Shown here one piece after another: positions 14,290 to 56,274 of a stretch of 64,000 nucleotides of DNA. Made by a program: the position numbers and the translations under genes. Numbering within the stretch: the stretch's first letter is position 1; each line of letters starts with the position of its first letter. The notes beneath the pieces were generated by a model. That model did no database searches, was not told the origin of the DNA, and saw nothing but the letters and a program-made list of their open reading frames with translations. The stretch comes from an uncultured virus (IMG/VR IMGVR_UViG_3300009155_005562) (lineage: Duplodnaviria; Heunggongvirae; Uroviricota; Caudoviricetes), in IMG/VR virus record IMGVR_UViG_3300009155_005562; one strand, written 5' to 3'.

Positions 14290-14562
14290 TTAGCCGTTGT
14301 AAACCTCATTAAGTTTTTCTCTAAAGGCTTCAATTTTTTCTACACGATTAGGCCAGTAAATATATTCTTTCTCTGGATTTTTTGCAAGATTATTTAATAG
14401 AGGTACTATCATATTGTAGAGCTTATCTATTTTTTGTGCTGTAGCAGATGCTACTTTAGTAGTAGAAACTACTGTTTCTTGAGCTTCTTGAACAGCTTCA
14501 AGTTCAGTCTCATTAACTAAACTAAATCCAAAGTCAAAATCATCGTTAATTTTTAAGTTCAT
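14290..14562 (-). CDS. Conserved T4-like hypothetical protein
   Basis: DFDFGFS...PLLNNL.KNPEKEYIYWPNR. Confidence 0.7.
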   Translation of the reverse strand: MNLKINDDFDFGFSLVNETELEAVQEAQETVVSTTKVASATAQKIDKLYNMIVPLLNNLAKNPEKEYIYWPNRVEKIEAFREKLNEVYNG

Positions 14563-19855: not shown

Positions 19856-19929
19856 TGGAGCGGGATGCGGGAATCGAACCCGCGACTCTAGCTTGGAAGG
19901 CTAGGGTAATACCATTTTACGAATCCCGC
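19856..19929 (-). tRNA. tRNA-Gly(UCC)
   Basis: Cloverleaf GCGGGAT...GTTCGATT...CCA. Confidence 0.95.
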
Positions 19930-20399
19930 TAGGCAGCCAATACTTCTTTAATCCTATCAGCAGCATAACTCGCTGCAAACGCTTGAGGCTTAATAAGGGG
20001 TGTAACATTGCACATGCCCTTAATATATCCTACTGCCTCGTTAATAATACAACTCGAACCGTGAAGATCACTTGGATTAATATCTAGATGAACTTCAACA
20101 TCTCTATCTTCTAGAACTTCTTGTAGTTTTAAATACAGCTCTGCAACTTTATATACTTCATTCATTAGCCGCATTCTTGGGCGGTTCTTGCTTTGATCAT
20201 AATCGCGTTCTCTTTGAACTTCGCCAAAGAGCTTGCAACCATGTCTTCCGTCAATGTGTACTACTATTGCGAGTGTGTAATCAGCATACCAAATATTGTT
20301 ATTAATGAATCTTTCAGAGTCGCCACCAATATAAATTTTTGTGCTAGGGCCTTGTGCTTCGATAAACTCTTTTACTTCATTAATATCTATTTTTAGCAT
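19929..20399 (-). CDS. RNase H-like YkuK family protein
   Basis: IYIGGDS, RLMNEV, EVHLDIN, AASYAAD. Confidence 0.8.
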   Translation of the reverse strand: MLKIDINEVKEFIEAQGPSTKIYIGGDSERFINNNIWYADYTLAIVVHIDGRHGCKLFGEVQRERDYDQSKNRPRMRLMNEVYKVAELYLKLQEVLEDRDVEVHLDINPSDLHGSSCIINEAVGYIKGMCNVTPLIKPQAFAASYAADRIKEVLAA

Positions 20400-20413
20400 G
20401 CTTACTCCTTAAT

Positions 20414-20501
20414 TGGTGCCCGGGACCGGAATCGAACCGGTACGCCGTTTTAAGGCGGCAGATTTTAAGTCTGCTGTGTCTACCTATTTCACCACCCGGG
20501 C
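20414..20501 (-). tRNA. tRNA-Leu(UAA)
   Basis: Class II cloverleaf with CCA. Confidence 0.95.
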
Positions 20502-20506
20502 AAATA

Positions 20507-20854
20507 TTACTTTTTAGCGGCTGGCTTACGACCAGGTTTACGACCAGGTTTCTTAGCAACAGGAGGCTTAGTTTCCACTACTTCCTGTACAACAGGCTCA
20601 TCTACTACAGGAGCTGGTTCTTCTACCACAGGAGCTGGCTCAGGAGGCAGTTCGATCTTAATATCTGAAACCTCGGAGTTATCTGTAATAATCACGCTTT
20701 GAACTTCTTTAACTGGTTCTGGGGCAGGAGCAGGAGCAGGAGGAGGCTCCGGTTGTTTAATATCATCTAGATATTCTAGTCCTGCTTTATCCAGATAGTT
20801 CCATACAAATGCAACTGCTAGGGCTGCAGCAATGATACCGATAATTGTTAACAT
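20507..20854 (-). CDS. Membrane-anchored Pro/Glu-rich protein with basic tail
   Basis: N-terminal TM, PAPAPAPEP linker, KKPGRKPGRKP. Confidence 0.6.
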   Translation of the reverse strand: MLTIIGIIAAALAVAFVWNYLDKAGLEYLDDIKQPEPPPAPAPAPEPVKEVQSVIITDNSEVSDIKIELPPEPAPVVEEPAPVVDEPVVQEVVETKPPVAKKPGRKPGRKPAAKK

Positions 20855-20871
20855 TTACTTCTCCTTTATAT

Positions 20872-20947
20872 TGGTGCGCCCGGTAGGATTCGAACCTACA
20901 CTCAACGGATTATGAGTCCGCTGCTTTAACCATTAAGCTACAAGCGC
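20872..20947 (-). tRNA. tRNA with CAU anticodon (Ile2/lysidine type or elongator Met)
   Basis: GCGCTTG...GGACTCATAATCC...CCA. Confidence 0.9.
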
Positions 20948-20953
20948 TAAAAC

Positions 20954-21030
<77 letters not shown>

Positions 21031-21067
21031 ATGATTTATTATATCCTACTCGTGAAAAGATATCAAC

Positions 21068-21075
21068 TATAAATA
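21068..21075 (+). promoter_or_regulatory. Late promoter TATAAATA, back-to-back with a sigma70 promoter for tRNA-Arg
   Basis: Exact consensus; adjacent minus-strand TTGATA-17-TATAAT. Confidence 0.7.
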
Positions 21076-21090
21076 AAGTGGAGGGGAAAA

Positions 21091-21873
21091 ATGACAAAAT
21101 ACAAATCCATTTTTATTTCTGATGTACATCTTGGAACTAAAGACAGCAGAGCTGATTTAGCTGCCAACTTTTTAAAGTATAATACCTGTGATAATTTATT
21201 TCTAGTGGGTGATATCATCGATGGCTGGAGAATTCAACAAAAAAAATGGCATTGGAAAAAAAGTCATTCCGCCTTTATTAGAAGAATCCTTAAACTAAGC
21301 AGAGATAACACCTCGATTACTTATGTTACTGGGAACCATGATGAGTTCTTAAGACCATATGTCGGTTCCTTCTCACTCGGTAACATTAACATAGTAAACT
21401 CTGCAGAATACAGATCAATAAACGGGGAGAAGTATTTAATAGTTCACGGAGATATGTTCGACGGAATAACTAGATTAGCTCCATGGCTATCATTCCTGGG
21501 CGATAAAGCTTATGATTGTGTTTTATGGCTCAACACTAAATTTAATTGGTGGCGTCATAAGTTAGGATTTGGATATTGGAGTTTATCTAGATTTTTAAAG
21601 CATAAAGTAAAAAAAGCAGTAGATTTTGTATTTAAATTTGAATTAAATGTAACTAGCTATGCTGCTAAAAGAAATTTTGACGGAATAATATGTGGTCATA
21701 TTCATACACCGGAAATTAAAACTATTAACGGTGTTACATATATGAATACCGGTGATTGGGTTGAGAGCTGCTCTGCGCTAGTTGAACACCATGATGGATT
21801 ATGGGAAATAGTTTATTGGACAGAGGCAAAAGATGAAATGGATTCTACTAATAATAGTAGTGCAAATCAATAA
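21091..21873 (+). CDS. Calcineurin-like metallophosphoesterase, UDP-2,3-diacylglucosamine hydrolase (LpxH)-like
   Basis: SDVHLG, GDIIDGW, GNHD, HGDMFD, GHIH, NTGDW. Confidence 0.85.
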   Translation: MTKYKSIFISDVHLGTKDSRADLAANFLKYNTCDNLFLVGDIIDGWRIQQKKWHWKKSHSAFIRRILKLSRDNTSITYVTGNHDEFLRPYVGSFSLGNINIVNSAEYRSINGEKYLIVHGDMFDGITRLAPWLSFLGDKAYDCVLWLNTKFNWWRHKLGFGYWSLSRFLKHKVKKAVDFVFKFELNVTSYAAKRNFDGIICGHIHTPEIKTINGVTYMNTGDWVESCSALVEHHDGLWEIVYWTEAKDEMDSTNNSSANQ

Positions 21874-22006
21874 TCCGGCAGACATACCTGGCAAGGTATT
21901 TTTAGAATTTCAAGATAAAGCATCTTGTATGGCAGCCCTTGACACTATGACTTACTGGATTAAGTTTAATACATTTAAAGTCGTAGGCTCTTGCTACGAA
22001 AAATAA
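21833..22006 (+). CDS. Small hypothetical secreted protein, 57 aa (not in ORF track)
   Basis: MKWILLIIVV...C...C; overlaps the end of the LpxH-like gene. Confidence 0.5.
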   Translation: MKWILLIIVVQINNPADIPGKVFLEFQDKASCMAALDTMTYWIKFNTFKVVGSCYEK

Positions 22007-22007
22007 T

Positions 22008-22446
22008 CGGTTACGCTACTCAGGTTGCAGTTCGCGTTCTAGACCGCTCCTACACTTATACACCCTTTCGTCCCTAGCTTTCGCTTCGCACCCAATACAC
22101 CGAAAGGTATGGGGCGGGTCCTTGACAGTAACGACTACTCTGGGTACGGCCTATAAGAAGGGCTCGCCATTTCGCTGTACGCGCTACTGTTATCGTCTCC
22201 TAAAGACTCATCAGAAGGACTGTTATAGGTGTCAAGCCATTCCTTACCGGGGAACCACTTGACCGGGAGGTTACTCCGACCACGTCTAATAACGCTTCGA
22301 CGATAACGCTTAAAGTATTCGATCTTTAAGAATCGCTAGTCATATGGTGGAACTAGGCACCTGAGAGTTCTGGACACTATTTGGCCAATAGTGCTGTGGC
22401 ATAACACAAACTCACACCTCTCCTAAACCCAAGGAGACACGGGGGT
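22008..22446 (-). ncRNA. Large structured non-coding RNA at the 3' end of the tRNA array
   Basis: No credible ORF, GC-richer than flanks, multiple hairpins, long-range helix CTCAGGT/ACCTGAG (22359-22365 with 22019-22025). Confidence 0.6.
22118..22229 (-). ncRNA. Hammerhead ribozyme-like fold (type I, one extra U in core)
   Basis: GUCCUU-CUGAUGA-GUCU(UUAGG)AGAC-GAUAA-CAGUAGCG...CGUUACUG-UC-AAGGAC; all three stems pair. Confidence 0.7.
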
Positions 22447-22447
22447 T

Positions 22448-22523
22448 TGGTAGGAGGTACCGGGTTCGAACCGATCACATTCACGGTGTAAGCGTGACGC
22501 TCTACCAACTGAGCTAACCTCCT
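22448..22523 (-). tRNA. tRNA-Val(UAC)
   Basis: Cloverleaf with CCA. Confidence 0.95.
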
Positions 22524-22527
22524 ATTT

Positions 22528-22604
22528 TGGTCTCGGCGGCAGGGTTCGAACCTGCGACCTCCTGCTCCCAAAGCAGGCATTCTACCAGACTGAACTACGC
22601 CGAG
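22528..22604 (-). tRNA. tRNA-Pro(UGG)
   Basis: Cloverleaf with CCA. Confidence 0.95.
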
Positions 22605-22611
22605 AAACTTG

Positions 22612-22684
22612 TACGAGTGGCGAGACTCGAACTCGCGACCAGCGGATTAAAAGTCCGTTGCGCTACCAACTGCGCCACACTCGC
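22612..22684 (-). tRNA. tRNA-Lys(UUU), CCA not encoded
   Basis: Cloverleaf; 3' end reads ...A-CAA. Confidence 0.9.
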
Positions 22685-22691
22685 AGAAAAC

Positions 22692-22767
22692 TGGTGCCCT
22701 GTGTCGGATTCGAACTGACCACCTACGCATTACAAGTGCGTTGCTCTACCAAATGAGCTAACAGGGC
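22692..22767 (-). tRNA. tRNA-Thr(UGU)
   Basis: Cloverleaf with CCA. Confidence 0.95.
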
Positions 22768-22773
22768 AAGACT

Positions 22774-22849
22774 TGGCTCCCCGACCTGGGCTCGAACCAG
22801 GGACACACGGATTAACAGTCCGTTGCTCTACCGACTGAGCTATCGGAGA
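22774..22849 (-). tRNA. tRNA-Asn(GUU)
   Basis: Cloverleaf with CCA. Confidence 0.95.
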
Positions 22850-22855
22850 ATAAAC

Positions 22856-22929
22856 TGGTTGCGGGACCTAGATTCGAACTAAGAACTCAGGCTTATGAGA
22901 CCTGTGTGATGCCATTTCACTATCCCGCT
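22856..22929 (-). tRNA. tRNA-Met(CAU), initiator-like
   Basis: CAU anticodon with 1:72 mismatch (A:A). Confidence 0.88.
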
Positions 22930-22967
22930 ATACGTACATTATACTGCTTATTGAATATAAGTCAACT

Positions 22968-23041
22968 TGGACCCGGTGGAGAGAATCGAACTCCCACATG
23001 CAGATTTGGAGGCTGCGGTTCTGCCATTAAACTACACCGGG
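22968..23041 (-). tRNA. tRNA-Trp(CCA)
   Basis: Cloverleaf with CCA. Confidence 0.9.
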
Positions 23042-23042
23042 T

Positions 23043-23132
23043 TGGCGGAAGCGGTGAGATTCGAACTCACGGTGCCATCGCTGGCACGACAGTTTTCAAG
23101 ACTGTTGCAATAAACCGGGCTGCCACACTTCC
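23043..23132 (-). tRNA. tRNA-Ser(UGA)
   Basis: Class II cloverleaf with CCA. Confidence 0.95.
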
Positions 23133-23138
23133 ATAAAT

Positions 23139-23221
23139 TGGTGCCCAAGAAGAGACTCGAACTCTTACGCCGAAGCACTGGCTTCTAAGACCAGCGTGTC
23201 TACCAATTCCACCACCTGGGC
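23139..23221 (-). tRNA. tRNA-Leu(UAG)
   Basis: Class II cloverleaf with CCA. Confidence 0.95.
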
Positions 23222-23229
23222 AATTAATC

Positions 23230-23323
23230 TGGTCCTCCCGACAGGATTCGAACCTGTAACGTGCCCCCATCTAGAGCCAATGCCGGGTATAAGCCGGGTG
23301 TTTTACCATTAAACTACAGGAGG
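23230..23323 (-). tRNA. Atypical tRNA, UAU anticodon (Ile) with long variable arm
   Basis: 94 nt; normal D and T arms; ~23-nt extra arm; CCA encoded. Confidence 0.75.
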
Positions 23324-25095: not shown

Positions 25096-25662
25096 CTAAA
25101 GCGTCGCATATACATCATCACCATGAACAAGAACAGTATACCCTTGTTCTGCTAAGATACTCAAAAGCACATTGAGATCAACAAACTTATGTTCTATTTT
25201 AAGCTTCTTCGGTTTTACTCTCCAGTTATAAGCACATAGAATCTCTAGTTCATGACCTTCTACATCCATCTTTAAATACTCTACATCTCTAATACCATGC
25301 CTGTAAAAAAAGTAATCTAAAGTAAAACACTTAACATTTCTCGTAATAGCCTTGCATGAACTTAAGTAGCCTTCTTTTAAGTTACGTTCAATTAAATTAC
25401 TACTAGAGAAGTTTAAATGACTAATACCTCTAACCCATTGCTCTGAAGCAGTATTAGGGTCAATATAGGTTATTTCAGCTTTCCCATTATAGCTAGAAAT
25501 AGCACAGTTATCAAAAAAGGCACCATCATTAGTGCCTATTCTTTTTTTAAGAGAGTCAAGATACTCTGAAACAGGCTCTACGAAGTAGACCCTGTTATCC
25601 GGAGTTAAGAAGTTATCGAGATTGTCAAAATCGCTAGTGCCTATCTCGACGTAGTTTTTCAT
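25096..25662 (-). CDS. FkbM-family methyltransferase
   Basis: VEIG...FVEP...NCAIS...LKMDVEGHE...IEH. Confidence 0.8.
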   Translation of the reverse strand: MKNYVEIGTSDFDNLDNFLTPDNRVYFVEPVSEYLDSLKKRIGTNDGAFFDNCAISSYNGKAEITYIDPNTASEQWVRGISHLNFSSSNLIERNLKEGYLSSCKAITRNVKCFTLDYFFYRHGIRDVEYLKMDVEGHELEILCAYNWRVKPKKLKIEHKFVDLNVLLSILAEQGYTVLVHGDDVYATL

Positions 25663-26318
25663 GCTTGAAAGTTTGAACTTGCTTCGGTTGCTACCCAGTA
25701 TGTAACATCATCACTCTTAAATTGTGCGACCCCCTTAGAAGTGATGTTAACATCGTAGCTACCACCCATTACCTTAATATTTTCTGCCTTAAAGATCATC
25801 CTGAAAGTATGCTCCGTGCTCTTCAAGTGAACGCGGTAGTTATCACTAGAAGGATTCTTTGAATCAATAGCCTCAAGATACATCTCGCCATCCTCGCCTG
25901 TTACCGCGATTTCAGGTAGTTGAAGTACGCCCAAAGCTTTTGAAACCTTCTGCAAGTCTTCTGCAGTTAGAACAAAGTTAATTTCCGCCTCTGGCATGTT
26001 TACACCTTTAGCGTCTGAACTAATAATCATTCTAGGATCTGCAAACGTATACTGAACCTTCTGCTTACCAGAAGAGATAGTCATATTACTTTCTTGAATA
26101 TCTAATTCAGGTTGATCGAAAAGCGACAGTACTCCTAGAAAACGCGACAAATCATAGATTGCAAAGGAGCGGGGGATCTCTTCTTTAATCGTTGCTGACG
26201 CCATAATTGTTTTCTGAGGAGATACTGTCGTGAGAACCTTCCCCTCTCTAAAAATAAGAGAGGGGTTAATCGTAGAAAAGTTCTTAAGGATTTGAACTGT
26301 TCTTTGATCTAATTTCAT
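25659..26318 (-). CDS. 45: Sliding clamp gp45
   Basis: MKL...ILKNFSTINPS...IYDLSRFL; synteny. Confidence 0.95.
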   Translation of the reverse strand: MKLDQRTVQILKNFSTINPSLIFREGKVLTTVSPQKTIMASATIKEEIPRSFAIYDLSRFLGVLSLFDQPELDIQESNMTISSGKQKVQYTFADPRMIISSDAKGVNMPEAEINFVLTAEDLQKVSKALGVLQLPEIAVTGEDGEMYLEAIDSKNPSSDNYRVHLKSTEHTFRMIFKAENIKVMGGSYDVNITSKGVAQFKSDDVTYWVATEASSNFQA

Positions 26319-27265
26319 TTTTTACCTTTCCGTAGCTGCGATACATCAGCTGTTGCCGAAGCACCAATCGTAGCAAGGTCAATCAAACTACCACCGAAGA
26401 TATACGAGCCAACGTGCTGTAGCTTCATCCAAGGGCAGAACCAAACCTTAAGACCTGCCTTAGCTGCATGATAGCAGAAATTATAGTCTTCTGAGAGGTA
26501 ACGCTTAGACGATTCTTTTTCGTTGTCAACAATCTTCTTAGCTGCAGCTTGCAAACCTTCCTTGCCGTTAGCAACGTCTTCCAGTAGATCATGTAGAGAT
26601 TGATAGCTAAAACCCCGGTCGATAATACAATCGAAGTAGGCATGAATCTCACGTGTACCATCGAAATGCTCTGTACGGACATGGTCAGGCTTGTACGACA
26701 GGTATGGATAAGCTTCCTTATAGCGCTCAAATGCACGACGCTGAACCATCATAAAGCCTGTACCAATTTCTAGAACTTCAACCGGCTCACCAAGCGGAAT
26801 CTCACGTGTATTTGACTTTGGATTGAATACATAGTCGCCAACATAATTTTCTAGCTTGTTTGGATCCTCTTCAGCTACACCCTTATCAACTGCTTGCTTA
26901 ATCTTTTCCCAGGAAATACACTTCTTGGGATAAGGGCCGCCCATAACGTCATAATCACTCTCATCAGTCATAAGAGCAAGTAAAGCGAGAATGTCTTGAG
27001 GGTTAAACCCGATATCACTATCGATAAACATTAGGTGAGTTGCATCTGACCGCATAAACTCATCTACGCAATAGTTACGAGCTCTGGTAATAAGAGACTC
27101 GTTAAACAAGTAGTAAAGCTGCAAAGGGATATTATACTTTGCACACATTGCTGAAAGGTCAGCAATGCTACGTGTATACATACCTGCGCACTGACCACCG
27201 TACATAGGCGTAGCTACGAATAGCTTTTTCTTCTGTAATTCTTCAACTGCGATTTGGATTTGCAT
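26315..27265 (-). CDS. GT-A fold glycosyltransferase-like protein
   Basis: ATPMYGG, ESLITRARN, FIDSD (DxD), GTGFMM, LSEDY. Confidence 0.7.
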   Translation of the reverse strand: MQIQIAVEELQKKKLFVATPMYGGQCAGMYTRSIADLSAMCAKYNIPLQLYYLFNESLITRARNYCVDEFMRSDATHLMFIDSDIGFNPQDILALLALMTDESDYDVMGGPYPKKCISWEKIKQAVDKGVAEEDPNKLENYVGDYVFNPKSNTREIPLGEPVEVLEIGTGFMMVQRRAFERYKEAYPYLSYKPDHVRTEHFDGTREIHAYFDCIIDRGFSYQSLHDLLEDVANGKEGLQAAAKKIVDNEKESSKRYLSEDYNFCYHAAKAGLKVWFCPWMKLQHVGSYIFGGSLIDLATIGASATADVSQLRKGKK

Positions 27266-27765
27266 TACGATGCTCCATATTTTTTATCATGTTCCTTACC
27301 TACCCCATAGTCGCCGTCATATAGGTGTAGCGCCTCTGCATCAAAACTCAAGTACTGACCAATACGAGTACCCTTTTTAATTCTAGCAGGTCCGCACGTT
27401 ACATGCATTACCCCTGCCATAACACCACTATACCCTGAATCGTAAAGGCCAGAAGTAAGAAATACTCCATTGCGATTCAGCGTGCTTCGTGTAATTACCC
27501 ACCCGGCCTCGTTAGGGCCTACGGTGATACTATTCTTCATGATTACTTCATAAGAGCCAGGTTCAAGCTCGAAAAATCCATCTACATCCGGGTGAATTTC
27601 TGTCGAACCTCTATGAGTCTTACTATGGTTAGTAATTTCAAATACAGTATTACTTATTTTATATACCTTACCCAATCTCAAGTCTACTGCGTTCGGTTGC
27701 ACATCAGACTTAGAATCAACATGCGAAAGAGTTGTCTCTGAATGTCGACCGTAAACATGCTTCAT
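27265..27765 (-). CDS. Trimeric dUTPase / dCTP deaminase family protein
   Basis: PNAVDLRL, RSTLNRNG, YDSGYSG, RIGQ. Confidence 0.85.
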   Translation of the reverse strand: MKHVYGRHSETTLSHVDSKSDVQPNAVDLRLGKVYKISNTVFEITNHSKTHRGSTEIHPDVDGFFELEPGSYEVIMKNSITVGPNEAGWVITRSTLNRNGVFLTSGLYDSGYSGVMAGVMHVTCGPARIKKGTRIGQYLSFDAEALHLYDGDYGVGKEHDKKYGAS

Positions 27766-28442
27766 ACTTCATCTCCAAAAAAGTAAGGATTCTCAACCGT
27801 CTTAAAACTAAAGATCGGGCTTGCTGTCTTATTTTCAAAGTTCATCATCAACACTTTATTAGACTCAGTTGCCTTTGAACTCTCAAACTTCGTAGATGAT
27901 ACGTTAAGCTTATCATCAATAAACATCGGTGAAATTTCATTCCTAAACAAGTACATATTATTAGTTGCATAATATAGGCAACTAAAAGAACCATCAAGCT
28001 TGTCTAATGCATACCATCCGTTTGCATAGAGTTCAAGAAGCATAAGCATTGTATCCCATTTAATATCTCCGCTATGCTCCTGCAACTTCTTAACTACATC
28101 TTCCTTTAGAATACCATTATGCCAGAGGCATTTTTCATATACTTCATGCTTGACGTCCTTACTAACCTGGAACGTCGAAATCAAATCCATGCGCGCCGGG
28201 TGAATTGAATTAATACTATTTGACTCTGTAGTAGGTGCTTGAACATGAACCACTCCGTACTGTCTCTGCGGCACTTCTACCAAAGACAAATCGATATTAC
28301 CAAGACCTTGCTTGATTAAAGTAAGTGTACCGGTATACGTATCATACAGAGAGAACGAATACGAATGACTTCCTCGATAGGAATTTAACTTAATAAGCTC
28401 GTGTAGCTTTGTTGTATCAAATGAACCAATAATTGCGCACAT
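27762..28442 (-). CDS. Stand-alone class II (Ntn) glutamine amidotransferase
   Basis: N-terminal Cys (MCAIIG), RG, HNGIL, DT, GSFS. Confidence 0.8.
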   Translation of the reverse strand: MCAIIGSFDTTKLHELIKLNSYRGSHSYSFSLYDTYTGTLTLIKQGLGNIDLSLVEVPQRQYGVVHVQAPTTESNSINSIHPARMDLISTFQVSKDVKHEVYEKCLWHNGILKEDVVKKLQEHSGDIKWDTMLMLLELYANGWYALDKLDGSFSCLYYATNNMYLFRNEISPMFIDDKLNVSSTKFESSKATESNKVLMMNFENKTASPIFSFKTVENPYFFGDEV

Positions 28443-28485
28443 ATTATAATTATCCGTTGAGTTGATTAATTATAGAATATACTCA

Positions 28486-29238
28486 TTACTTAATCAACTT
28501 ATCCCACGGTATATCAATAGAATAATCTACCGGATCTTCTAACCCTGCTTTAGCGAAGTTAGCTATCCTTTCTGCACAAGAAGGACACTTACCGCAGCTC
28601 TCACCATCGTCTGATGGATTATAGCAAGTCAAAGTATACTGTAGGAGATGTTCTAGCTTAAGTTCTTTACAGATTTCGATCTCTTGATGCTTGCTGAGGT
28701 GACTGAACGGTGCAACTATCTTAACTTTATGTGTTCTATTCTGCTCCGCTACCGTATTAATGCTATCTACAAACCGTTGTGTTGTATCCCAATAGCCATA
28801 CTCGTCATGAACCTGTAGACCAGTAAACACATATGATGCATCTGTAGCTTCAGCCTGCGCAAGAGTAAGAGACAATAAAATCAAATTTCTAAAAGGTACG
28901 TACGTTTTAGGTTGAGGGTCTCCTAAAACGTCTTTAATTGTAGGCATGGCAACATCTGTACCACTAATATTAGCTGAAATAGGCTTAGCTATTTCTCCTA
29001 GAATAGATAGATCAAGAATTTTATGATCAATACCTAGCGATTCACATAGCGTTGTTGCGCAATTGAGTTCATGTTTCTGCTTCTGGCCATAATCATATGA
29101 GAGCGCAAATACTTTATCAGCCCCATATTTCTCTACCAGAAGCATGGTCATGATAGAAGAGTCCAACCCGCCTGACAATACGGCTAAAACGTTTTTATTA
29201 GTATCAGGTAGGCTACTAAGAGCATCACTTAGGTTCAT
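28486..29238 (-). CDS. queC: 7-cyano-7-deazaguanine (preQ0) synthase QueC
   Basis: LSGGLDS, YGQK, YVPFRN, TCY...CGKCPSC. Confidence 0.95.
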   Translation of the reverse strand: MNLSDALSSLPDTNKNVLAVLSGGLDSSIMTMLLVEKYGADKVFALSYDYGQKQKHELNCATTLCESLGIDHKILDLSILGEIAKPISANISGTDVAMPTIKDVLGDPQPKTYVPFRNLILLSLTLAQAEATDASYVFTGLQVHDEYGYWDTTQRFVDSINTVAEQNRTHKVKIVAPFSHLSKHQEIEICKELKLEHLLQYTLTCYNPSDDGESCGKCPSCAERIANFAKAGLEDPVDYSIDIPWDKLIK

Positions 29239-29425
29239 TTCGTTCCTTCTGCACTCTATGAATATAGACTACAGCATCCATTAGCTCTTCTTTAAGATGC
29301 TGTACCCATTGATCAAAGTTTAGATCGGTTCTTTCTGTTGTAACTCTGTACTTGTTATACCCGTGTAAAGATCTAGCAACGAACTCGTCACAAATTTCAT
29401 TAACATTCTTATCCGGTGAATCCAT
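29225..29425 (-). CDS. MazG-like all-alpha nucleotide pyrophosphohydrolase
   Basis: RS..G..KY...WVQHLKEELMDAVVY (EExxD). Confidence 0.6.
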   Translation of the reverse strand: MDSPDKNVNEICDEFVARSLHGYNKYRVTTERTDLNFDQWVQHLKEELMDAVVYIHRVQKERNEPK

Positions 29426-30354
29426 TACTGCCTCATCGTCTTTTTGCAGAAATTAAATTCAGACACCAAAGAGCCTGCATATTGATACAATACTTCTGAT
29501 GATGAAGCGCGAACCGGATTAATATCAATACCGCCACGACGTGTATACAAGCATGCAACTAGAAGCTCTTCTGGCTCTAGGATATCGTAAAGTCGCTTGT
29601 AAATACATTCACAAATCTCTTCATGGAAATGATTCTCTTTGCGCATGCTTACAATATATTGCAGAAGAGATTCTGGTGTAACTGCGTTTTTACCTTTAAT
29701 ATGAACGTACACATCTCCCCAATCAGGCTGATTAGTTACTCGGCAGTTTGAACGCAACGAATGCGAACGCCAACGCTCGTAACGCCCTATACTAGGAACA
29801 ACCTGTAGAATATCAGACCTTTCGGTATATTCGTCAAACGTTAGTTCTAGTATATTGCAATACGATTCGAGCGAAGTAAAGTCACCTTTAATAGGAATAG
29901 ACTCATCCACATGACCAATTGCAATCTGTACCCATACATCAGCACCGGTGGCTCTGCTTAGATGAGAAGAGATCTGGTCTTCGATCATCCATAGATCATC
30001 CGGGGTATCCATCAGCTTGGCCATATTATAAGAATTGAGATATAGCTTTACTGACTTTGACTCTACAATGTTAGGGCTTTTGCTATCGCAAACAAACTTC
30101 AACCAGCCGGAAATAGGAAATCCGTTCTTAAGTAAGGTTGAGAATTCATAAGCATTCCACGCATCGTGTCCGATGAAGGGTAGATTGTCGTCGTGAAGCT
30201 CATACTCAGTTCGATTAAGCTGTCTAGGCACAGATACCAGAAGCGACTCATCTACACTATCTGGTGTAACATAGGGCTTGACTACTGTCCCATCACCTGC
30301 GCGACCTAGGTGAACTGAGACAAGATCATTTAATGTTTTTTGATTATCACTCAT
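29425..30354 (-). CDS. queF: Bimodular preQ0 nitrile reductase QueF
   Basis: QueF motif ESKSVKLY, SNCRVTNQPDWG, FHEEICE, YTRRGGIDINP. Confidence 0.92.
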   Translation of the reverse strand: MSDNQKTLNDLVSVHLGRAGDGTVVKPYVTPDSVDESLLVSVPRQLNRTEYELHDDNLPFIGHDAWNAYEFSTLLKNGFPISGWLKFVCDSKSPNIVESKSVKLYLNSYNMAKLMDTPDDLWMIEDQISSHLSRATGADVWVQIAIGHVDESIPIKGDFTSLESYCNILELTFDEYTERSDILQVVPSIGRYERWRSHSLRSNCRVTNQPDWGDVYVHIKGKNAVTPESLLQYIVSMRKENHFHEEICECIYKRLYDILEPEELLVACLYTRRGGIDINPVRASSSEVLYQYAGSLVSEFNFCKKTMRQ

Positions 30355-30902
30355 ATTTTATTCATTTCCCTATTAATTTCTACTGCATTAAGTACAAATT
30401 GAACTCGCTCCCTCACCGTACCTTTTACACGATAGACTGGAATCTCAAAACGTGTAATGGCTTCGTCGAAGATATTTACTATACGTTCTCTAAAGAAAGT
30501 ATTAATAGAGCGAACACCATCATTTTTAATCTCGAACTCTGGTGCAATATAAAAAATCATATCATACCCACTTATCATTCGATTAAAAACAGTCTCAACA
30601 TAATCCATAGTATCAGACTTAATCTTGCCATTCTCTCGTAAATATCTGGAATAGACATAACCATCAAGTACTGTTCTATCTGTAATCATATGATTATGCA
30701 TAGAAAGATTAACTATATGCTGATTCATAATCAGCTCTTGTGTTGTATCAGTGCCTTCTTCGTTAATAGGCAGACCATATGATGCAACCTTTCTCGTCAC
30801 TTCACTGCAAACATCATAGGTTTTAAAGAACGGCTCTGAACGCAACGCATTCAATAGAGTCGTTTTACCAGTAGACTGTGCACCGCTTAGACCAATTCGC
30901 AT
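30351..30902 (-). CDS. P-loop nucleotide kinase-like protein (AAA_28/NadR type)
   Basis: GAQSTGKTT, ITDRTVLD, DGVR. Confidence 0.75.
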   Translation of the reverse strand: MRIGLSGAQSTGKTTLLNALRSEPFFKTYDVCSEVTRKVASYGLPINEEGTDTTQELIMNQHIVNLSMHNHMITDRTVLDGYVYSRYLRENGKIKSDTMDYVETVFNRMISGYDMIFYIAPEFEIKNDGVRSINTFFRERIVNIFDEAITRFEIPVYRVKGTVRERVQFVLNAVEINREMNKI

Positions 30903-31432
30903 TCAAATTTATCCTTAAAAAAAGCAAGCCATGAATGAAGAGAAGTAAGCTTCAGAGTATCGTATATCTCTTCTCGCGAGTTACAACTATTAAACACAGC
31001 AAACTCATAAAGTATCTCTCCTGCATCTACTTCAGGTGTAACCTTATGAATGATACTTCCAATTCTATCGTAAAGAGAAAGATTCTTTGCTACCACCTCT
31101 TGAGGATCTTTACCTTTAAGCTCCGGGTACTTTGTAATTAGTCCAGGATGCCCATTATACATTTCACGAGAGTTAACAATATCTTCATTAATAATCCTAA
31201 GATATCCATGCAGCGTATAGACTGTATCAGATGCGTCCTTTCTAATAAGCCGCATAATATTAGCATGCGTATTAGATACGACGTTACAGGTATTAATAAA
31301 AGGATGCCACGAAGCGTGCTCTAGATTATTAGTATATACTAGATCCGGCTTAATACCAAGCTTTGAAGAAATAGCAGATATCTCAGAACCTGTCTGAGAA
31401 AATAAAGCAACCCATCGCCTATCTTTAACCAT
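30887..31432 (-). CDS. PurN-like formyltransferase (candidate DpdN)
   Basis: LHGYLRII, NGHPGL..YP, GSIIHKVTPEVDAGEI. Confidence 0.8.
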   Translation of the reverse strand: MVKDRRWVALFSQTGSEISAISSKLGIKPDLVYTNNLEHASWHPFINTCNVVSNTHANIMRLIRKDASDTVYTLHGYLRIINEDIVNSREMYNGHPGLITKYPELKGKDPQEVVAKNLSLYDRIGSIIHKVTPEVDAGEILYEFAVFNSCNSREEIYDTLKLTSLHSWLAFFKDKFECELV

Positions 31433-32213
31433 TAACTATTGACCTAAAGCACTCAATATTATAAAAAATCTTGCTCAATTGCTCATCATTAATATCCGAG
31501 TTAATAAGCGTATAGAGCTTCTCGATAGGCTTATCTTCCAATCCTTTAATACCATTATATCGAATATCTTTCAAACCAGCAACTACAGGATTAGATGTAT
31601 CTAGAGAATCAATCCATTTATAGCCTCGATACACATCAAACTCTTGAGGAAGCCCGCAGCCTAGAAGGTGATGAGGCTTATTAATATTGATCACATTTGC
31701 AATATTAAGCATGTAATTAATTAAAGCATCTCGCCCGTACATATAGTGATGGTACTTCGTCGGGAGAACGCCATTAATCTCTTCGTTAACAAAGAAAGAG
31801 TAATCAAAAGAAATAGCAATCTTATCAACTAACGGTTCAATCTCTTGATAGCACCAGACTATTTCTTGAACGCTCTTACCTTGAACTACCCCGATAGACT
31901 TTTTACCTGCAAGATGTTGCCATTGCTGAACATTCTTAACTGTTTGCTGGGCGTCTTCAAGAACATCCGGAATAATATAATAAGTAGGATCTAGCTTCTC
32001 AATCCATTCACAGTATTTGTCTCTGTCAAAAGCAGTACCGAGCTCAAATACAGAATTGTCAAGTATTACTTCACGTTTCTTCTGCAATGCTCTTTCAAAA
32101 AGACTATAGTACTTCTCATTTTCTTCAAAAAGATGTACAAGAGCATAATCATAGTCGGTTACTTCTTGCACTTTATTAAAAATACTTAGAGGGGCTTCGT
32201 GGGCTATTTTCAT
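31425..32213 (-). CDS. TGT-fold DpdA-like deazaguanine transferase
   Basis: ILDNSVFE, IPDV, VVQG, HHLLG, SLDTS TIM-barrel motifs; located inside the que cluster. Confidence 0.7.
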   Translation of the reverse strand: MKIAHEAPLSIFNKVQEVTDYDYALVHLFEENEKYYSLFERALQKKREVILDNSVFELGTAFDRDKYCEWIEKLDPTYYIIPDVLEDAQQTVKNVQQWQHLAGKKSIGVVQGKSVQEIVWCYQEIEPLVDKIAISFDYSFFVNEEINGVLPTKYHHYMYGRDALINYMLNIANVININKPHHLLGCGLPQEFDVYRGYKWIDSLDTSNPVVAGLKDIRYNGIKGLEDKPIEKLYTLINSDINDEQLSKIFYNIECFRSIVNG

Positions 32214-32722
32214 TGCAGCTTCTTAATAAATGGTTCGTTTTTTGATACCCAGAGAATATAAGCTCCGTTCTTGACAAGCCTAGCTCTGTGCTTGTTCTTC
32301 TCTACATGCGCTCGCATTGCATCTACCTCATAGCAGTAAATGCTTTCGTAGACTAAATCAACACCGTAGATTTCACGGGCAGTAGTAGTATAAATCCAGC
32401 CGTTACGGGCTTTATCGTCATAGACTTCTACTCCTAGAAATCCTTTAAAGATGTTAGTTTTAACATCGATAGGATGCCCATCAACTGTAAAATCTATTTT
32501 CAATTTAACTTGACTATGAGGATCTTCTTTCTTTTCATATTCAATATTATTCTCTACAAGATAGCGCTCAACTACCCCTTCACCGCTATCCCCCTTACGA
32601 CCAGATTCACCGTATCTGCCTTCTGAGTTCTGATACCAAACCATATCTTTAAATATCTCACTTAAACATTTATGAATTAGATAATCAGCTTCTTTTGCCG
32701 ACTCTTCTGATAGTTTAGTCAC
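32210..32722 (-). CDS. PD-(D/E)XK nuclease-like protein
   Basis: GE..VE, IDF...IDVKT. Confidence 0.6.
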   Translation of the reverse strand: MTKLSEESAKEADYLIHKCLSEIFKDMVWYQNSEGRYGESGRKGDSGEGVVERYLVENNIEYEKKEDPHSQVKLKIDFTVDGHPIDVKTNIFKGFLGVEVYDDKARNGWIYTTTAREIYGVDLVYESIYCYEVDAMRAHVEKNKHRARLVKNGAYILWVSKNEPFIKKLQ

Positions 32723-32736
32723 TCTGCGTATTTAAC

Positions 32737-33420
32737 TCAACGGGGTGCGAATTCTTGTTGCAGCTTTACGTTATCAAAAAACTCTTTCTTTACATCTGCC
32801 TCTTTAAACTGGCCTTTAAGTACGGTTGTTTGAGTAAGAGATGAATGAGCACCAATACCTCTATTCTCACAGCACCCATGAGTAGCCTGAATATAAACCG
32901 CTACGTCTTTGCTACCCGTAGCACTTTTAATTTCGCGAGCAATATCGTTGCAGAGTTCTTCTTGCAAAGTTCCACGCCGGGCACACCACTGCGCAATACG
33001 CGTGTACTTTGAAAGCCCTATAACCTTATCCTCAGGAATAATACCAATATAAGCAACACCGGATACGGGCTGATGATGATGCGAACACATTGACTTTAAT
33101 TCGGACCTGACTACAAGCATCCCTTTGTATGCAGCATTACCTACGTTAGGGAACGAGGTAGCATCTGGTCTAGGAAAATATCTACCAGCCATAATTTCCT
33201 GAACATACATCTTAGCTAGTCTTTTCGCTGTTCCCTTTGAGTTTGGGTCATTTTCCCGGTCAATGAGCAAAGCATCCAGTACTCCTTCAAACGCTTTTGT
33301 AGCCTCTTCAATAATAAATTCACGATCTGCATCATTGAGAATTGAGGAAATATTATCACCGGCCCAATACCTTATCTTGTTGTTAATGAGTTTATTACGC
33401 AACAGTTCAGTATACTTCAT
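32737..33420 (-). CDS. folE: GTP cyclohydrolase I FolE
   Basis: SMCSHH, GLSKY, LQEEL, HGCCENRG. Confidence 0.95.
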   Translation of the reverse strand: MKYTELLRNKLINNKIRYWAGDNISSILNDADREFIIEEATKAFEGVLDALLIDRENDPNSKGTAKRLAKMYVQEIMAGRYFPRPDATSFPNVGNAAYKGMLVVRSELKSMCSHHHQPVSGVAYIGIIPEDKVIGLSKYTRIAQWCARRGTLQEELCNDIAREIKSATGSKDVAVYIQATHGCCENRGIGAHSSLTQTTVLKGQFKEADVKKEFFDNVKLQQEFAPR

Positions 33421-33422
33421 TA

Positions 33423-33890
33423 TTAACCTTCATAAAATGCTGAGTTACCCGCATGCTCAAATACTTCTACTGACCTTACACGCACGGTGGGGTTAAGTAG
33501 AGTTCCATTTTCTCTCCAGTCATCCAGCATTAATGCAAGCTGATTATAGGCAAGCTCCGCAAACCGCTCACAACCCACAGCAGGTACTACTCTAACATCT
33601 GCTACACCCATACCGTGCAGCTGCTTAAGCGTATTAAGTTCCGGATCGTCTTCTGCTAGAATTAAAGTATGGTCAAACATGTATTCTAGCCATTCTTTAA
33701 ACTCCTTCAGCCCACCAAAGTCCATAACCCAATTGCGGTCATCTAGACTATCACATTCAAACGTAACATGCACGCCAATAGAATATCCGTGCAAGAGACA
33801 GCAATGACTGTGAGTACTTTTCCATTGTCTAAAACAACAACTTAGACCTCGATCATTACCGTATGTCTTAGTACTATAAAACTTTCCCAT
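33423..33890 (-). CDS. queD: 6-carboxytetrahydropterin synthase QueD
   Basis: HC.LLHGYS, WVMDFG, FDHT, VEVFE. Confidence 0.9.
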   Translation of the reverse strand: MGKFYSTKTYGNDRGLSCCFRQWKSTHSHCCLLHGYSIGVHVTFECDSLDDRNWVMDFGGLKEFKEWLEYMFDHTLILAEDDPELNTLKQLHGMGVADVRVVPAVGCERFAELAYNQLALMLDDWRENGTLLNPTVRVRSVEVFEHAGNSAFYEG

Positions 33891-33891
33891 A

Positions 33892-34326
33892 TTATTTCTC
33901 CCACCAAAAATCAATCCAATCACTAAATTCTGATCGCCGTATTGTCATGTAATGGTAGTCTGGAACTACCGGCTGTTCTTTGTTCCATACTATCACTGCT
34001 ACATCTGTCTTGCCGTGAATCTCCATAAACGATTGAATAGTCTTACCCGTATCTAAAATTTCATCTACAAGTAGGACCTTATTTCTAGGATTATCGAGAA
34101 TATCCATCAATGTAATGGATGGCTTCTTACGGTCAGTGTCCCAATTGCTTGCTAGCATAGGGACATCGAGCTTATGACTTAGAATAGTAGCAGGTATCAG
34201 ACCGCCTCTAGTTAAGCCTACGATATAATTATACTTAATTTTCTTCTTTCTAATTTGCTCTACTAGTTCGTCTATGGCTGAACTAAACTCAGCAAATGTA
34301 AATTCATAGGTTCCTATGTCCCCCAT
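33892..34326 (-). CDS. Type I phosphoribosyltransferase (Gpt/Xpt-like)
   Basis: GLTRGGL, PRPP loop VLLVDEILDTGKT, WIDFWWE. Confidence 0.85.
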   Translation of the reverse strand: MGDIGTYEFTFAEFSSAIDELVEQIRKKKIKYNYIVGLTRGGLIPATILSHKLDVPMLASNWDTDRKKPSITLMDILDNPRNKVLLVDEILDTGKTIQSFMEIHGKTDVAVIVWNKEQPVVPDYHYMTIRRSEFSDWIDFWWEK

Positions 34327-35171
34327 GCGTTTCTCCAAATATCTACTTGCAATCGCGGAGAGTATCTCCACCCTAATTTCATAGCATGCTCTGCTACTTG
34401 TTTATTGTTTAAATAATAAACTTGCTCTGTACCACCAACAGGCATCAAATATACATCACCGATAAAGCCGCCGTCTTTAAATTCTTTAACTGCCTTTTTA
34501 GCATCTTCAATATCTTCTTCCGTCGCAACTACAAACTTAAGATAGGTATGACCAATACCTTGATAGTCGTGAACAATTTCTGGCTTGATAGCATCCTCCC
34601 ACTTCTCACCTGAGCATGGAAGTTTAGCTGATACTGAGAATGTAAGTCGATCAAAGTTACGGCCAAATCTAGTAAATTCTTCAAACAAGAAGTATTTAAA
34701 ATCTTCTGTTAAAGGTTGAGTACCGTTCGTTTCAAACGTAAGGTTTTCTAGATCGTAGATGAAATCAGCGCGCTTGATAAGATCAGGGAACGAACGCTGC
34801 CATCCTAGAAGAGGCTCTCCGCCAGTAATAACTAAATGCTCTTTTTTCCATTTTCGTTCTGGAAGCAGCTCAAAAATCTTTTGAGCAATTTCGTCAGTAG
34901 ATCGTACAGGACTAAGATGCTTAAAACGAGGATCCCAACTAGCATAAGAATCACATCCAGTATGAACCAGAGGAAGCTCTTCATAGAGTTTATAATTAGA
35001 AATTTGGCTAGCAACATTATCTCTCTCATCACTCAGCTGTCCTGGTGGCATGCCAAACCCGGCACATTAGAAGTTACAACCGAAAGTTCTTAAAAAGATT
35101 GAAGGCACACCTACAAAGCGCCCTTCACCTTGCAGGCTATAAAAAAGCTCTGCGACTTTAATTTTTGACAT
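34314..35171 (-). pseudogene. queE: Radical SAM CDG synthase QueE with in-frame TAA at codon 35
   Basis: MSKIKVAELFYSLQGEG...RTFGCNF*CAGFGM...GCDS, ITGGEP, FETNG; stop at 35067-35069. Confidence 0.85.
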
Positions 35172-35207: not shown

Positions 35208-35732
35208 TTATATAGCTCGGCCAATCTGCTTTAGCTTCTTAACTTTCCTATCAAGAATCTTCTTTTGATTAAGAGCTCTTGTTAAATGAATTGCATTAGC
35301 TCTCTTAGTATAATCGATACCGTTTAAATGGTCAAGCTCATGTTGTACGCATCGCGCGGTCATTCCGATAAACTTTTCCGTATGGAATTCACCAAATGCA
35401 TCTTGATACCTGACCTTAATTACCGATGGTCTTTTAATTGGTAAGAATAAATTAGGATACGTTAAGCACCCCTCGTCTAGTTTTACTTCCTCAGTAGTCG
35501 AGTCAACAATCGAAGGATTAAATAAAGCTAAGGGCTCTACTGAATGTAGAACAAACACTCTGTAAGGTAATCCTACTTGATTAGCTGAGAGACCGATTCC
35601 TTTATTGTGAACCATAGTCTCGATAAGGTTATTAGCTAATTCAACTGGATGAATAGGTGGTTCAGTAAAGTTAAATCTCTCCAACTTAGTAAAGAGAAGA
35701 TGATGATCAGGTTTAACTAATTCATATATCAT
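35208..35732 (-). CDS. def: Peptide deformylase
   Basis: GIGLSANQVG, EGCLT, QHELDHLNG. Confidence 0.95.
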   Translation of the reverse strand: MIYELVKPDHHLLFTKLERFNFTEPPIHPVELANNLIETMVHNKGIGLSANQVGLPYRVFVLHSVEPLALFNPSIVDSTTEEVKLDEGCLTYPNLFLPIKRPSVIKVRYQDAFGEFHTEKFIGMTARCVQHELDHLNGIDYTKRANAIHLTRALNQKKILDRKVKKLKQIGRAI

Positions 35733-55973: not shown

Positions 55974-56274
55974 TAAAAAAAGCCTTATCGTTAAACGCCT
56001 TGTCGTCGATCCATATATCGTAGGATGGCTTGCCAAGTCTTAGCTCAGAATACTTTACCCCCCATTCATCTAGCTGTCGCTGTGTAAGCTCAGAATGATC
56101 TATACCCGATGTAGATCCTCTTGCAGTCCAGTAGATAATAGTATGACCTTCATCATAAAGCTTATTCATCCTTTCTATTCTATCAACAATGGGTGTATGC
56201 TTAATGTACACCCATTGACCGTTCTCCTTTACAGGATTACAGATAGTTCCATCAATATCACAAATTATTACCAT
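55951..56274 (-). CDS. HAD-family phosphatase
   Basis: DIDGTI, WTAR, GKP, IDDK. Confidence 0.8.
   Translation of the reverse strand: MVIICDIDGTICNPVKENGQWVYIKHTPIVDRIERMNKLYDEGHTIIYWTARGSTSGIDHSELTQRQLDEWGVKYSELRLGKPSYDIWIDDKAFNDKAFFNDIPNWP

Follow-up and report, generated by a model that had tools for sequence, protein, structure and literature searches.

Two questions are raised by the locus described here: whether a phage replaces the guanine of its DNA by a 7-deazaguanine and, if so, whether the exchange is made in the DNA itself or already in the nucleotide pool. The locus lies in a 64,000-nucleotide stretch from an uncultured virus (IMG/VR IMGVR_UViG_3300009155_005562; the whole stretch is hereafter called the window), by its gene content a piece of a T4-like phage genome. 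Between 27265 and 35171, the minus strand holds 13 co-oriented open reading frames (ORFs), closely packed or overlapping (Table 1). A first-pass annotation had described this contiguous block, and all 13 ORFs are present where it had put them; it had also proposed that guanine is substituted before replication, with a phosphoribosyltransferase (PRTase) converting the modified base to a nucleotide. Pfam, NCBIfam, PHROGs and similarity to proteins of the Flavobacterium phage immuto gave family-level support for 11 of the 13 ORFs. This homology gives good support to the prediction that the block, seated in a variable island between def/gp46 and gp45, is a genome-substitution module for 7-deazaguanine, of the DpdA3 class and the formyl-preQ1 type. 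If immuto is a guide, most or all dG of the virion DNA should be replaced by formyl-dPreQ1.

The predicted transglycosylase is central to this assignment. In addition to its likeness to immuto, it shares 40% identity with gp056 of phage CP220 and 24.5% with the protein of phage phiST; the alignments, including that to immuto, span 91-100% of the protein, and one profile aligns them all. The closest structures to its AlphaFold2 model (pLDDT 93.5, pTM 0.90) are all tRNA-guanine transglycosylases (TGTs; Foldseek E from 1.8e-7 upward; VIA Z 17.7, rmsd 2.9, 230 aligned), and both catalytic aspartates, D52 (in LDN; general acid/base) and D205 (in SxD; nucleophile), are invariant across 31 sequences. 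An enzyme that had been called DpdA-like can thus be assigned to the DpdA3 subfamily by kinship, modelled TGT barrel and catalytic residues. Pfam's own model for TGTs, PF01702, fails to detect these proteins: it matched 0 of 5 records, known DpdA3 carriers among them.

The adjacent PurN-like protein, likewise recognised earlier, is identified as DpdN by its similarity to immuto DpdN, its Asn/His/Asp triad (N93/H95/D136, invariant across 28 sequences) and the co-encoded QueF and DpdA3. Its profile matches PurN structures at E 9.5e-14 with the N-terminal SxxGS loop included. This loop (FSQTGSE) aligns only with the ISGxGSN loop of glycinamide ribonucleotide (GAR) transformylase, PurN; alignments of PurU, Fmt and sugar formyltransferases to DpdN begin past profile position 40. 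A loop of this type presumably binds the phosphate of GAR which, if right, suggests a phosphorylated substrate for DpdN.

The virion DNA of immuto contains no detectable dG and 345,000 formyl-dPreQ1 per 10^6 nucleotides, and the enzymes were named DpdA3 and DpdN (PMC10516641). The gene order QueF-kinase-DpdN-DpdA3 is collinear between the window and immuto (43, 36, 43 and 51% identity, respectively), and FolE, QueD and a PRTase are common to both. Because the same families occur in the same order, we regard the window as a further member of the immuto system. The two differ in their backbones, T4-like with a family B polymerase in the window and PolA in immuto, and in the pyrophosphohydrolase, which is DCD-like here and of the PRA-PH type in immuto. 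QueC and an Ntn amidotransferase lie inside the window cluster, which also has an extra 66-aa ORF and a nuclease-like ORF, and the window phage is known here from its genes alone.

All five proteins of the previously claimed que set (FolE, QueD and QueE, together with QueC and QueF) are supported by family profiles. FolE, QueD, QueE and QueC, the last with its glutamine amidotransferase partner, would convert GTP to preQ0; QueF would reduce preQ0 to preQ1, DpdN would formylate the aminomethyl group, and DpdA3 would exchange guanine for the deazaguanine. The window QueF scores 228.6 bits with TIGR03138, under the equivalog cut-off of 293. Homologues of the Ntn amidotransferase adjoin QueC in 49 Vibrio phage records (nt-1, VH7D and KVP40 type) and in Pseudomonas phage pf16; judged from sequence, this protein is part of preQ0 synthesis and not of a nucleotide route.

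Table 1. The 13 ORFs of the 7-deazaguanine block, in window coordinates.
Feature	Position	Strand	Support
DCD/dUTPase-superfamily NTP pyrophosphatase, candidate dGTP-removing enzyme	27265..27765	-	PF22769 55.4 bits (cut-off 27)
Ntn (class II) glutamine amidotransferase-like protein, QueC partner	27762..28442	-	MCAIIG start; GATase_7 17.8 bits, weak, below cut-off; phrog_12378 7.7e-44
QueC, 7-cyano-7-deazaguanine (preQ0) synthase	28486..29238	-	PF06508 179 bits; TIGR00364 170.8 bits, over cut-off
66-aa conserved viral-family ORF	29225..29425	-	Predicted two-helix hairpin, AlphaFold2 pLDDT 88.5
Bimodular QueF, preQ0 reductase to preQ1	29425..30354	-	QueF_N 101 bits + QueF 68 bits
AAA_28 P-loop kinase, nucleoside-kinase / NadR-RNK-like	30351..30902	-	PF13521 70.4 bits
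DpdN, PurN-like formyltransferase (preQ1 to formyl-preQ1, predicted)	30887..31432	-	Immuto DpdN, 43% identity
DpdA3, minimal TGT-fold guanine transglycosylase (predicted)	31425..32213	-	Immuto DpdA, 51% identity
Variable nuclease-like ORF, possible NERD / PD-(D/E)XK relative	32210..32722	-	GE...D...DxK pattern
FolE, GTP cyclohydrolase I	32737..33420	-	PF01227 135 bits
QueD, 6-carboxytetrahydropterin synthase	33423..33923	-	PF01242 62 bits; phrog_2389 2e-39
6-oxopurine (XGPRT-like) phosphoribosyltransferase	33892..34371	-	PF00156 50.5 bits
QueE, 7-carboxy-7-deazaguanine synthase	34314..35171	-	285 codons; TAA at 35067-35069 in this assembly

Evidence on the stage at which guanine is exchanged comes in part from the neighbours of DpdA3. 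A tblastn search with the window protein found 26 phage records: four of immuto, 15 of the Campylobacter CP220 type, five of the Cellulophaga phiST type, Chryseobacterium phage MA9V-3 and Weizmannia phage Youna2. Table DS1 of PMC10516641 adds the carriers RHph_I1_18, PA5oct and Ahp1_CNU-2021, and two Vibrio phages, D479 (E 1e-17, probability 98.9%) and Bakedbeans (E 5e-12, probability 97.8%), were recognised by HMM search and hhalign. A small P-loop kinase lies next to DpdA3, or one gene off, in 9 of 11 isolate lineages, two of these being weak calls. CP220 encodes an HD+AAA_33 fusion, DpdA3 and an AAA_28 kinase, in that order; its HD domain stands in place of a DCD-like or MazG-like pyrophosphatase. 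The order in phiST is DpdA3, AAA_18 kinase, DpdL and MazG, and elsewhere in that genome a PRTase gene lies beside a weak match to a dNMP kinase (DNMK) and a ribonucleotide reductase (RNR). MA9V-3 has an AAA_18/33 kinase and DpdA3 with a DCD-like gene nearby; Ahp1 has DpdL, DpdA3, DNMK (64 bits) and a DCD-like gene; D479 has DpdA3, DNMK (36 bits) and a DCD-like gene. Bakedbeans carries DpdA3 and a weak DNMK-like ORF, and Youna2 a 183-aa Walker-A ORF as its kinase candidate, DpdA3 and PolA. In RHph_I1_18, a DpdA3 with a C-terminal DUF3310 fusion (L104:6672-7940 in our locus numbering) is followed by a DCD-like gene, while PA5oct shows DpdA3, a glycosyltransferase (GT)-like gene, DpdL, two ORFs, PRTase and QueE.

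The kinases beside DpdA3 thus belong to three families: AAA_28 (window, immuto, CP220), AAA_18/33 (phiST, MA9V-3, CP220 gp055) and the T4 gp1-type DNMK (Ahp1, D479 and, weakly, Bakedbeans). CP220 (dADG), phiST (dDG), RHph_I1_18, PA5oct and Ahp1_CNU-2021 resemble the window in that DpdA3 is adjoined by a kinase and/or a dNTP pyrophosphatase. They differ from it in ending at CDG-derived bases, with DpdL or without QueC/QueF and without DpdN, in the families of their kinases (AAA_18/33, DNMK) and, for RHph_I1_18, in the DUF3310 fusion.

Profiles leave the substrate class of the window's DCD-like protein undecided, because it scores below the equivalog cut-offs of both dUTPase (NF002598, 84 versus 130) and dCTP deaminase (45.6 versus 92.8); its PF00692 score is 23.8 bits (cut-off 22). 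Homologues of this protein (tblastn, E<=1e-5) occur in just 5 of 50,697 phage records, and all five encode DpdA3. The possibility that the DCD-like gene is a mere backbone gene, suggested by its occurrence in RHph_I1_18, was rejected, as RHph_I1_18 and all other carriers encode DpdA3. The kinase had been called NMP-type, a label that is not supported: its profile looks closer to nucleoside kinases or NadR-RNK, the top structures being the deoxynucleoside kinase 8puu (E 4e-4, aligned across the DR(S/T) motif) and NadR-type proteins. Its homologues adjoin DpdA3 in immuto and CP220. The family is also found in 89 Streptomyces phage records, next to an FkbM methyltransferase and without DpdA3, so it is not confined to deazaguanine systems; in the 131-kb Streptomyces phages, the FkbM gene overlaps the kinase gene.

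Linkage of the accessory genes with que/DpdA clusters was also found among uncultured relatives. An IMG/VR scan with the window DpdA3 gave 8 close loci and a profile scan at least 532 relatives, the best 80 of which were analysed, the first 8 among them. The position of DpdN, between DpdA3 and QueF, is the same in 77 of the 80. Kinase and PRTase were counted in the 52 loci with both QueE and QueF, the other 28 being left out as incomplete contigs. Both genes occur in 25 loci, the kinase alone in 6, neither in 21 and the PRTase alone in none; counted per DpdA3 cluster (80% identity), the figures are 14, 4, 9 and 0. The slot between DpdN and QueF is filled in every one of the 52 loci, by an AAA_28 kinase in 31 and by a DUF3310 ORF in 21, never by both. 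On the DpdA3 tree, the kinase changed state at least four times and the PRTase five times; an independent-pairs test of kinase against PRTase, with three pairs only, gave two concordant, none opposite and one without difference. All 46 loci whose right flank extends for 7 kb or more have an NTP pyrophosphatase in the cluster. It is DCD-like in 29 and MazG/PRA-PH-like in the rest, and in some relatives a MazG/PRA-PH-like gene occupies the very slot of the DCD-like gene.

This pattern has two natural counterparts. Phage T4 reaches complete substitution by hydroxymethylcytosine through gp56 dCTPase, gp42 dCMP hydroxymethylase and gp1 dNMP kinase. DpdA3 and its neighbours would provide the same three functions (dNTP pyrophosphatase, base modification and dNMP kinase), with enzymes that are not homologous to those of T4 save for the DNMK in Ahp1 and D479, and with a putative transglycosylase as the modifier. 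In the 2-aminoadenine system of cyanophage S-2L (PurZ/MazZ/DatZ; PMC8342488), the canonical dNTP is removed, a dNMP is supplied and the analogue is made at the nucleotide level. The window differs from S-2L in having no PurZ homologue, a DCD-like protein instead of MazG or HD, and a TGT-family enzyme. Because the partners of DpdA3, a pyrophosphatase and usually a kinase, are swapped between lineages for non-homologous enzymes of the same class, they point to exchange at the nucleotide level; the pattern is a signature of the T4 and S-2L pathways and is hard to motivate if G first enters the DNA. The earlier comparison with genome-wide substitution systems survives insofar as the gene families are present and co-inherited, and is weakened by the 21 of 52 loci that do without the kinase.

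We tentatively put first, at somewhat less than an even chance, a scheme in which substitution takes place among free nucleotides, by the logic of T4 gp56/gp42/gp1, and DpdA3 performs the entry step. The DCD-like pyrophosphatase would hydrolyse dGTP to dGMP, which would both bar dGTP from replication and provide the substrate. DpdA3 would then replace guanine by preQ1 or formyl-preQ1 on dGMP or deoxyguanosine, not on DNA. The adjacent kinase, followed by host or phage kinases, would bring the product to the triphosphate, to be incorporated by gp43. The XGPRT-like (xanthine-guanine) PRTase would be an optional booster, returning the released guanine via GMP to GTP, the substrate of FolE. More specifically, it is possible, at less than an even chance, that DpdA3 is a transglycosylase of dGMP or deoxyguanosine instead of DNA and forms, with a dedicated dGTP pyrophosphatase (DCD-like, MazG-like or HD) and a dNMP or nucleoside kinase, a third natural pre-replicative strategy for a whole-genome purine. 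What stands of the original pre-replicative proposal is the pyrophosphatase/kinase linkage and the overall logic; the PRTase as entry is not supported.

Several published observations fit exchange at the nucleotide level. Replacement was complete in all three DpdA3 phages analysed, compared with at most 30% in other DpdA classes; no modified DNA resulted from DpdA3 in E. coli; and CP220-infected cells contained the ADG nucleoside (all PMC10516641). A pre-replicative route through modified dGTP had been proposed for Campylobacter phages, as cited in PMC6884629.

A number of points weigh against it. The pre-replicative idea for Campylobacter phages was abandoned in 2023 on the discovery of DpdA3, whose discoverers concluded that insertion is post-replicative (PMC10516641). 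A paper of December 2025 still describes substitution at the level of nucleic acid. The P-loop neighbour need not be a nucleotide kinase, because bacterial DpdA requires an ATPase partner, DpdB (PMC10164549). In the uncultured relatives, the 21 kinase-less loci, which also lack the PRTase, carry a DUF3310 ORF of 83-90 aa in the kinase slot (for example, L047:9298-9561 and L048:9271-9543; also in L063 and L085). No other small Walker-A ORF was found in their flanks, where three regex matches proved to be a gp46 fragment and QueF. With 21 of 52 loci lacking it, the kinase is dispensable or host enzymes stand in for it. A literature search, as far as its partial texts extend, returned no described function for DUF3310. 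The locus ORFs were labelled with HMMs built iteratively from their own matches and not with curated models. To our knowledge, all characterised TGT and DpdA enzymes act on polynucleotides, and base exchange on free nucleotides by this fold would be without precedent. Genes for dUTPase and dNMP kinase are ordinary T4-type housekeeping genes, and the substrates assigned above to the DCD-like protein, the kinase and the PRTase are, at the level of sequence, candidates only. Net charge does not discriminate either: the acidity of DpdA3 (median pI 5.1, net -12) was considered as a sign against DNA binding and dropped, as the DpdA2 of VH7D is also acidic (-7).

Nearly as likely as a nucleotide-level exchange entered through DpdA3, and in our estimation a serious contender if still below an even chance, is the published model, in which gp43 uses dGTP and DpdA3 replaces every G in double-stranded DNA by preQ1. 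DpdN would formylate the base within DNA or, beforehand, the free base; the P-loop neighbour would be a DpdB-like, ATP-using helper of DpdA3; the PRTase, together with the kinase, would recycle guanine to GTP for FolE; and the DCD-like protein would be a housekeeping dUTPase. The TGT fold of DpdA3 with both catalytic aspartates retained speaks for this model, as does the fact that DpdA1, DpdA2 and bacterial DpdA work on DNA, the last with DpdB (PMC10164549, PMC10516641). DpdA3 is universal in these clusters and kinase and PRTase are repeatedly lost; the kinase- and PRTase-less loci manage with DUF3310, a domain that one phage has as a fusion with DpdA3. The PRTase resembles XGPRT and conserves a purine-stacking Trp region, and the supplement of Cui (PMC10516641) describes a mildly positive groove of DpdN as a possible DNA site.

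The post-replicative model, on the other hand, leaves unexplained both the bona fide nucleotide-kinase neighbours (T4 gp1-type DNMK, deoxynucleoside kinase/NadR-like) and the restriction of the DCD-like family to DpdA3 phages, since a generic dUTPase would spread more widely. An enzyme hydrolysing dGTP would counteract it. The inactivity of DpdA3 alone on DNA in E. coli, given above, tells against it, and so does the build of the protein. In the DpdA of the bacterial DpdA/DpdB/DpdC system, a TGT-fold transglycosylase with the same catalytic Asp pair and a required nucleotide-hydrolysing partner, a 128-residue insertion after the nucleophile forms, with Ins1, the surface that binds DNA, which is positively charged, and there is a conserved structural Zn site (PMC10164549); modification there is sparse and sequence-specific. 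DpdA3 has neither insertion nor Zn site: its 262 aa make it shorter than TGT or DpdA by about 100 residues, a Cys cluster is missing with just one Cys invariant, and only about 57 residues remain past Asp205.

Entry through the PRTase, as the first-pass annotation had it, appears improbable. Here preQ0, preQ1 or formyl-preQ1 would react with phosphoribosyl pyrophosphate (PRPP) to give a ribonucleotide, which a kinase, RNR and nucleoside diphosphate kinase (NDK) would convert to the dNTP for incorporation by gp43; the pyrophosphatase would remove dGTP, and DpdA3 would just patch leftover G. PRTases act on 7-deazapurine bases in the biosynthesis of toyocamycin and tubercidin. In the 52 loci the PRTase never occurs without the kinase, its gene lies among que genes in the window, PA5oct and BUCT-ZZ01, and its phage homologues are concentrated in DpdA3 phages: of 25 records, 9 are of the immuto (4) or phiST type (5), 11 are Pseudomonas phages (PA5oct and PA5oct-like, with DpdA3 checked in PA5oct alone) and one is BUCT-ZZ01. 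The protein has a type I fold, and its best structural matches are purine/xanthine-guanine PRTases (1vdm 1.6e-11; E. coli XGPRT about 2e-5); judged by this similarity, its role could be no more than guanine salvage. Of 52 loci, all with DpdA3, 27 have no PRTase, and PF00156 was found neither in G002, a relative that is 96% complete and otherwise carries the cluster, nor in the complete genomes of CP220 and MA9V-3. No RNR lies within the window, and the kinase profile is nucleoside-kinase-like, not that of an NMP kinase. Because the PRTase is the most dispensable part, its use as the entry is the least likely of the three routes considered so far.

Synechococcus phage BUCT-ZZ01 is less clear. 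Its cluster (L010:8192-15126) encodes QueE, PRTase, a 118-aa ORF, QueD and FolE, followed by two GT1-type glycosyltransferases, and no QueC. No DpdA3 was found there by profile A2, which also misses the published PA5oct DpdA3 (hhalign 4.6%), so the phage could still hold a divergent DpdA, which counts against its use as support for PRTase entry. BUCT-ZZ01 may have a DpdA-independent or a divergent deazapurine pathway.

That the genes work only for queuosine in host tRNA or to supply precursors, or modify the DNA partially and at a low level without global substitution, is very improbable: phages without DpdA have been discussed as having que genes but no DNA modification (PMC6884629), and queE has a stop codon in this assembly, but DpdA3 and DpdN are found intact, and conserved, in over 80 related loci, immuto, the closest characterised relative, has fully substituted DNA, and the stop is found neither in relatives nor in public contigs. 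The in-frame TAA falls inside the radical-SAM Cys motif (FGCNF*C). Seven relatives, each with an uninterrupted QueE of 283-285 aa, have CAA or ACC (Gln or Thr) at this site, and the record nearest to the window (G001, with 90% of sampled words in common) has CAA. On the plus strand, position 35069 is G instead of A in G001 and in contigs of all three public runs covering it, one of which may be from the source sample, and there is no ochre suppressor among the 14 tRNAs of the window. An assembly error or a rare variant is the likeliest origin of the stop. A transporter gene of the Vut_1/YhhQ type, a preQ0/preQ1 importer family, lies in one related cluster (L085:6910-7539) between FolE and an SNase gene.

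With the window and its relatives, complete replacement by formyl-preQ1, known from one cultured Flavobacterium phage, would extend to a large freshwater group of T4-like phages (at least 532 IMG/VR stretches). The combination of DpdA3 with a constant pyrophosphatase and, usually, a kinase of interchangeable family appears neither in the main text and supplement parts of the paper defining DpdA3 nor in the literature that we found. The main text of PMC10516641 contains neither 'phosphoribosyl' nor 'kinase'; in the parts of its supplement consulted, 'kinase' is absent and 'phosphoribosyl' occurs just in HHpred matches to PRA-PH. A literature search covering few subscription journals returned no paper in which the accessory genes are tied to DpdA3 or synthesis at the nucleotide level is shown. 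With this pattern, the choice between substitution before and after replication is reopened, and it is testable on phages already cultured. If DpdA3 did act on nucleotides, it would represent a new activity of the TGT fold and an enzymatic route to 7-deaza-dGTP analogues, and the phages with complete replacement (CP220, phiST, immuto and more than 500 uncultured relatives) would have been assigned the wrong mechanism.

For two ORFs of the block, the earlier calls were not confirmed as given. The 66-aa ORF had been taken for a MazG-like pyrophosphohydrolase, which neither profile nor structure supports; the pyrophosphatase of the cluster is the DCD-like gene. The 66-aa ORF resembles MazG in an EELxDAxxY motif alone; Pfam (E<=10), PDB and Foldseek (E<=0.001) gave no match for it. 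In hhalign comparisons with three families of MazG/PRA-PH-like proteins taken from related loci, probabilities were 0.1-0.3%, and none of its Atlas neighbours has a Pfam family. Its occurrence follows that of the kinase: in 57 loci with QueF and QueC, both are present in 24, the kinase only in 8, the ORF only in none and neither in 25.

The ORF upstream of DpdA3, previously called a nuclease, has no Pfam or PDB match. Part of that claim is kept alive by its GE..D..DxK pattern, conserved in 18 sequences, and by a weak hhalign match (55%, E 1.2e-4) to a NERD-domain protein from the same slot of a relative. It is present in 3 of 8 close relatives. The content of the slot varies across relatives (NERD-like, SNase, HNH, small ORF or empty; window 32210-32722, L048:7477-8001, L085:7589-8017, L063:7236-7589, L007:9616-10017), and its nuclease-type genes could be homing elements or nucleases directed against G-containing DNA.

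Around the block, the window encodes replication and repair proteins (gp41, UvsX, gp43 at 14559-17096, dCMP deaminase, RegA, gp62/44/45, gp46/47, a gp55-like sigma factor, UvsW and UvsY) as well as gp23, gp20, gp18, gp17 and other structural and packaging proteins. Public contigs carrying the stretch come from freshwater metagenomes, and four runs contain at least half of its words, one of them being possibly the source. The block had been placed between gp46/def and gp45. Its def/gp46 border is as described, with the peptide deformylase gene (35208-35732) directly adjoining; on the other side, a gene for a GT-A-like protein (phrog_1574; 26315-27265) intervenes before gp45. As this gene also occurs in T4-like phages of the phiM12, Cr30, DLP6 and RHph_I1_18 type, it is probably a backbone gene of the lineage and not part of the cluster. 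An FkbM-family methyltransferase gene (25096-25662) lies between gp45 and gp44 and is shared with just 1 of 8 close relatives. A PADLOC scan gave no relevant match. Elsewhere in the window, a NUMOD3-motif ORF of homing-endonuclease type lies on the plus strand (6885-7496), and the 14 tRNA genes form an array on the minus strand (19856-23323) that includes a 94-nt tRNA, Ile(tat) according to ARAGORN. Beside the neck and tail genes, a sugar-nucleotide and sulfation island (55191-63597) encodes an NAD epimerase, a cytidylyltransferase, a PfkB kinase, an APS-kinase-like protein, a methyltransferase, a GT2 protein and a sulfotransferase.

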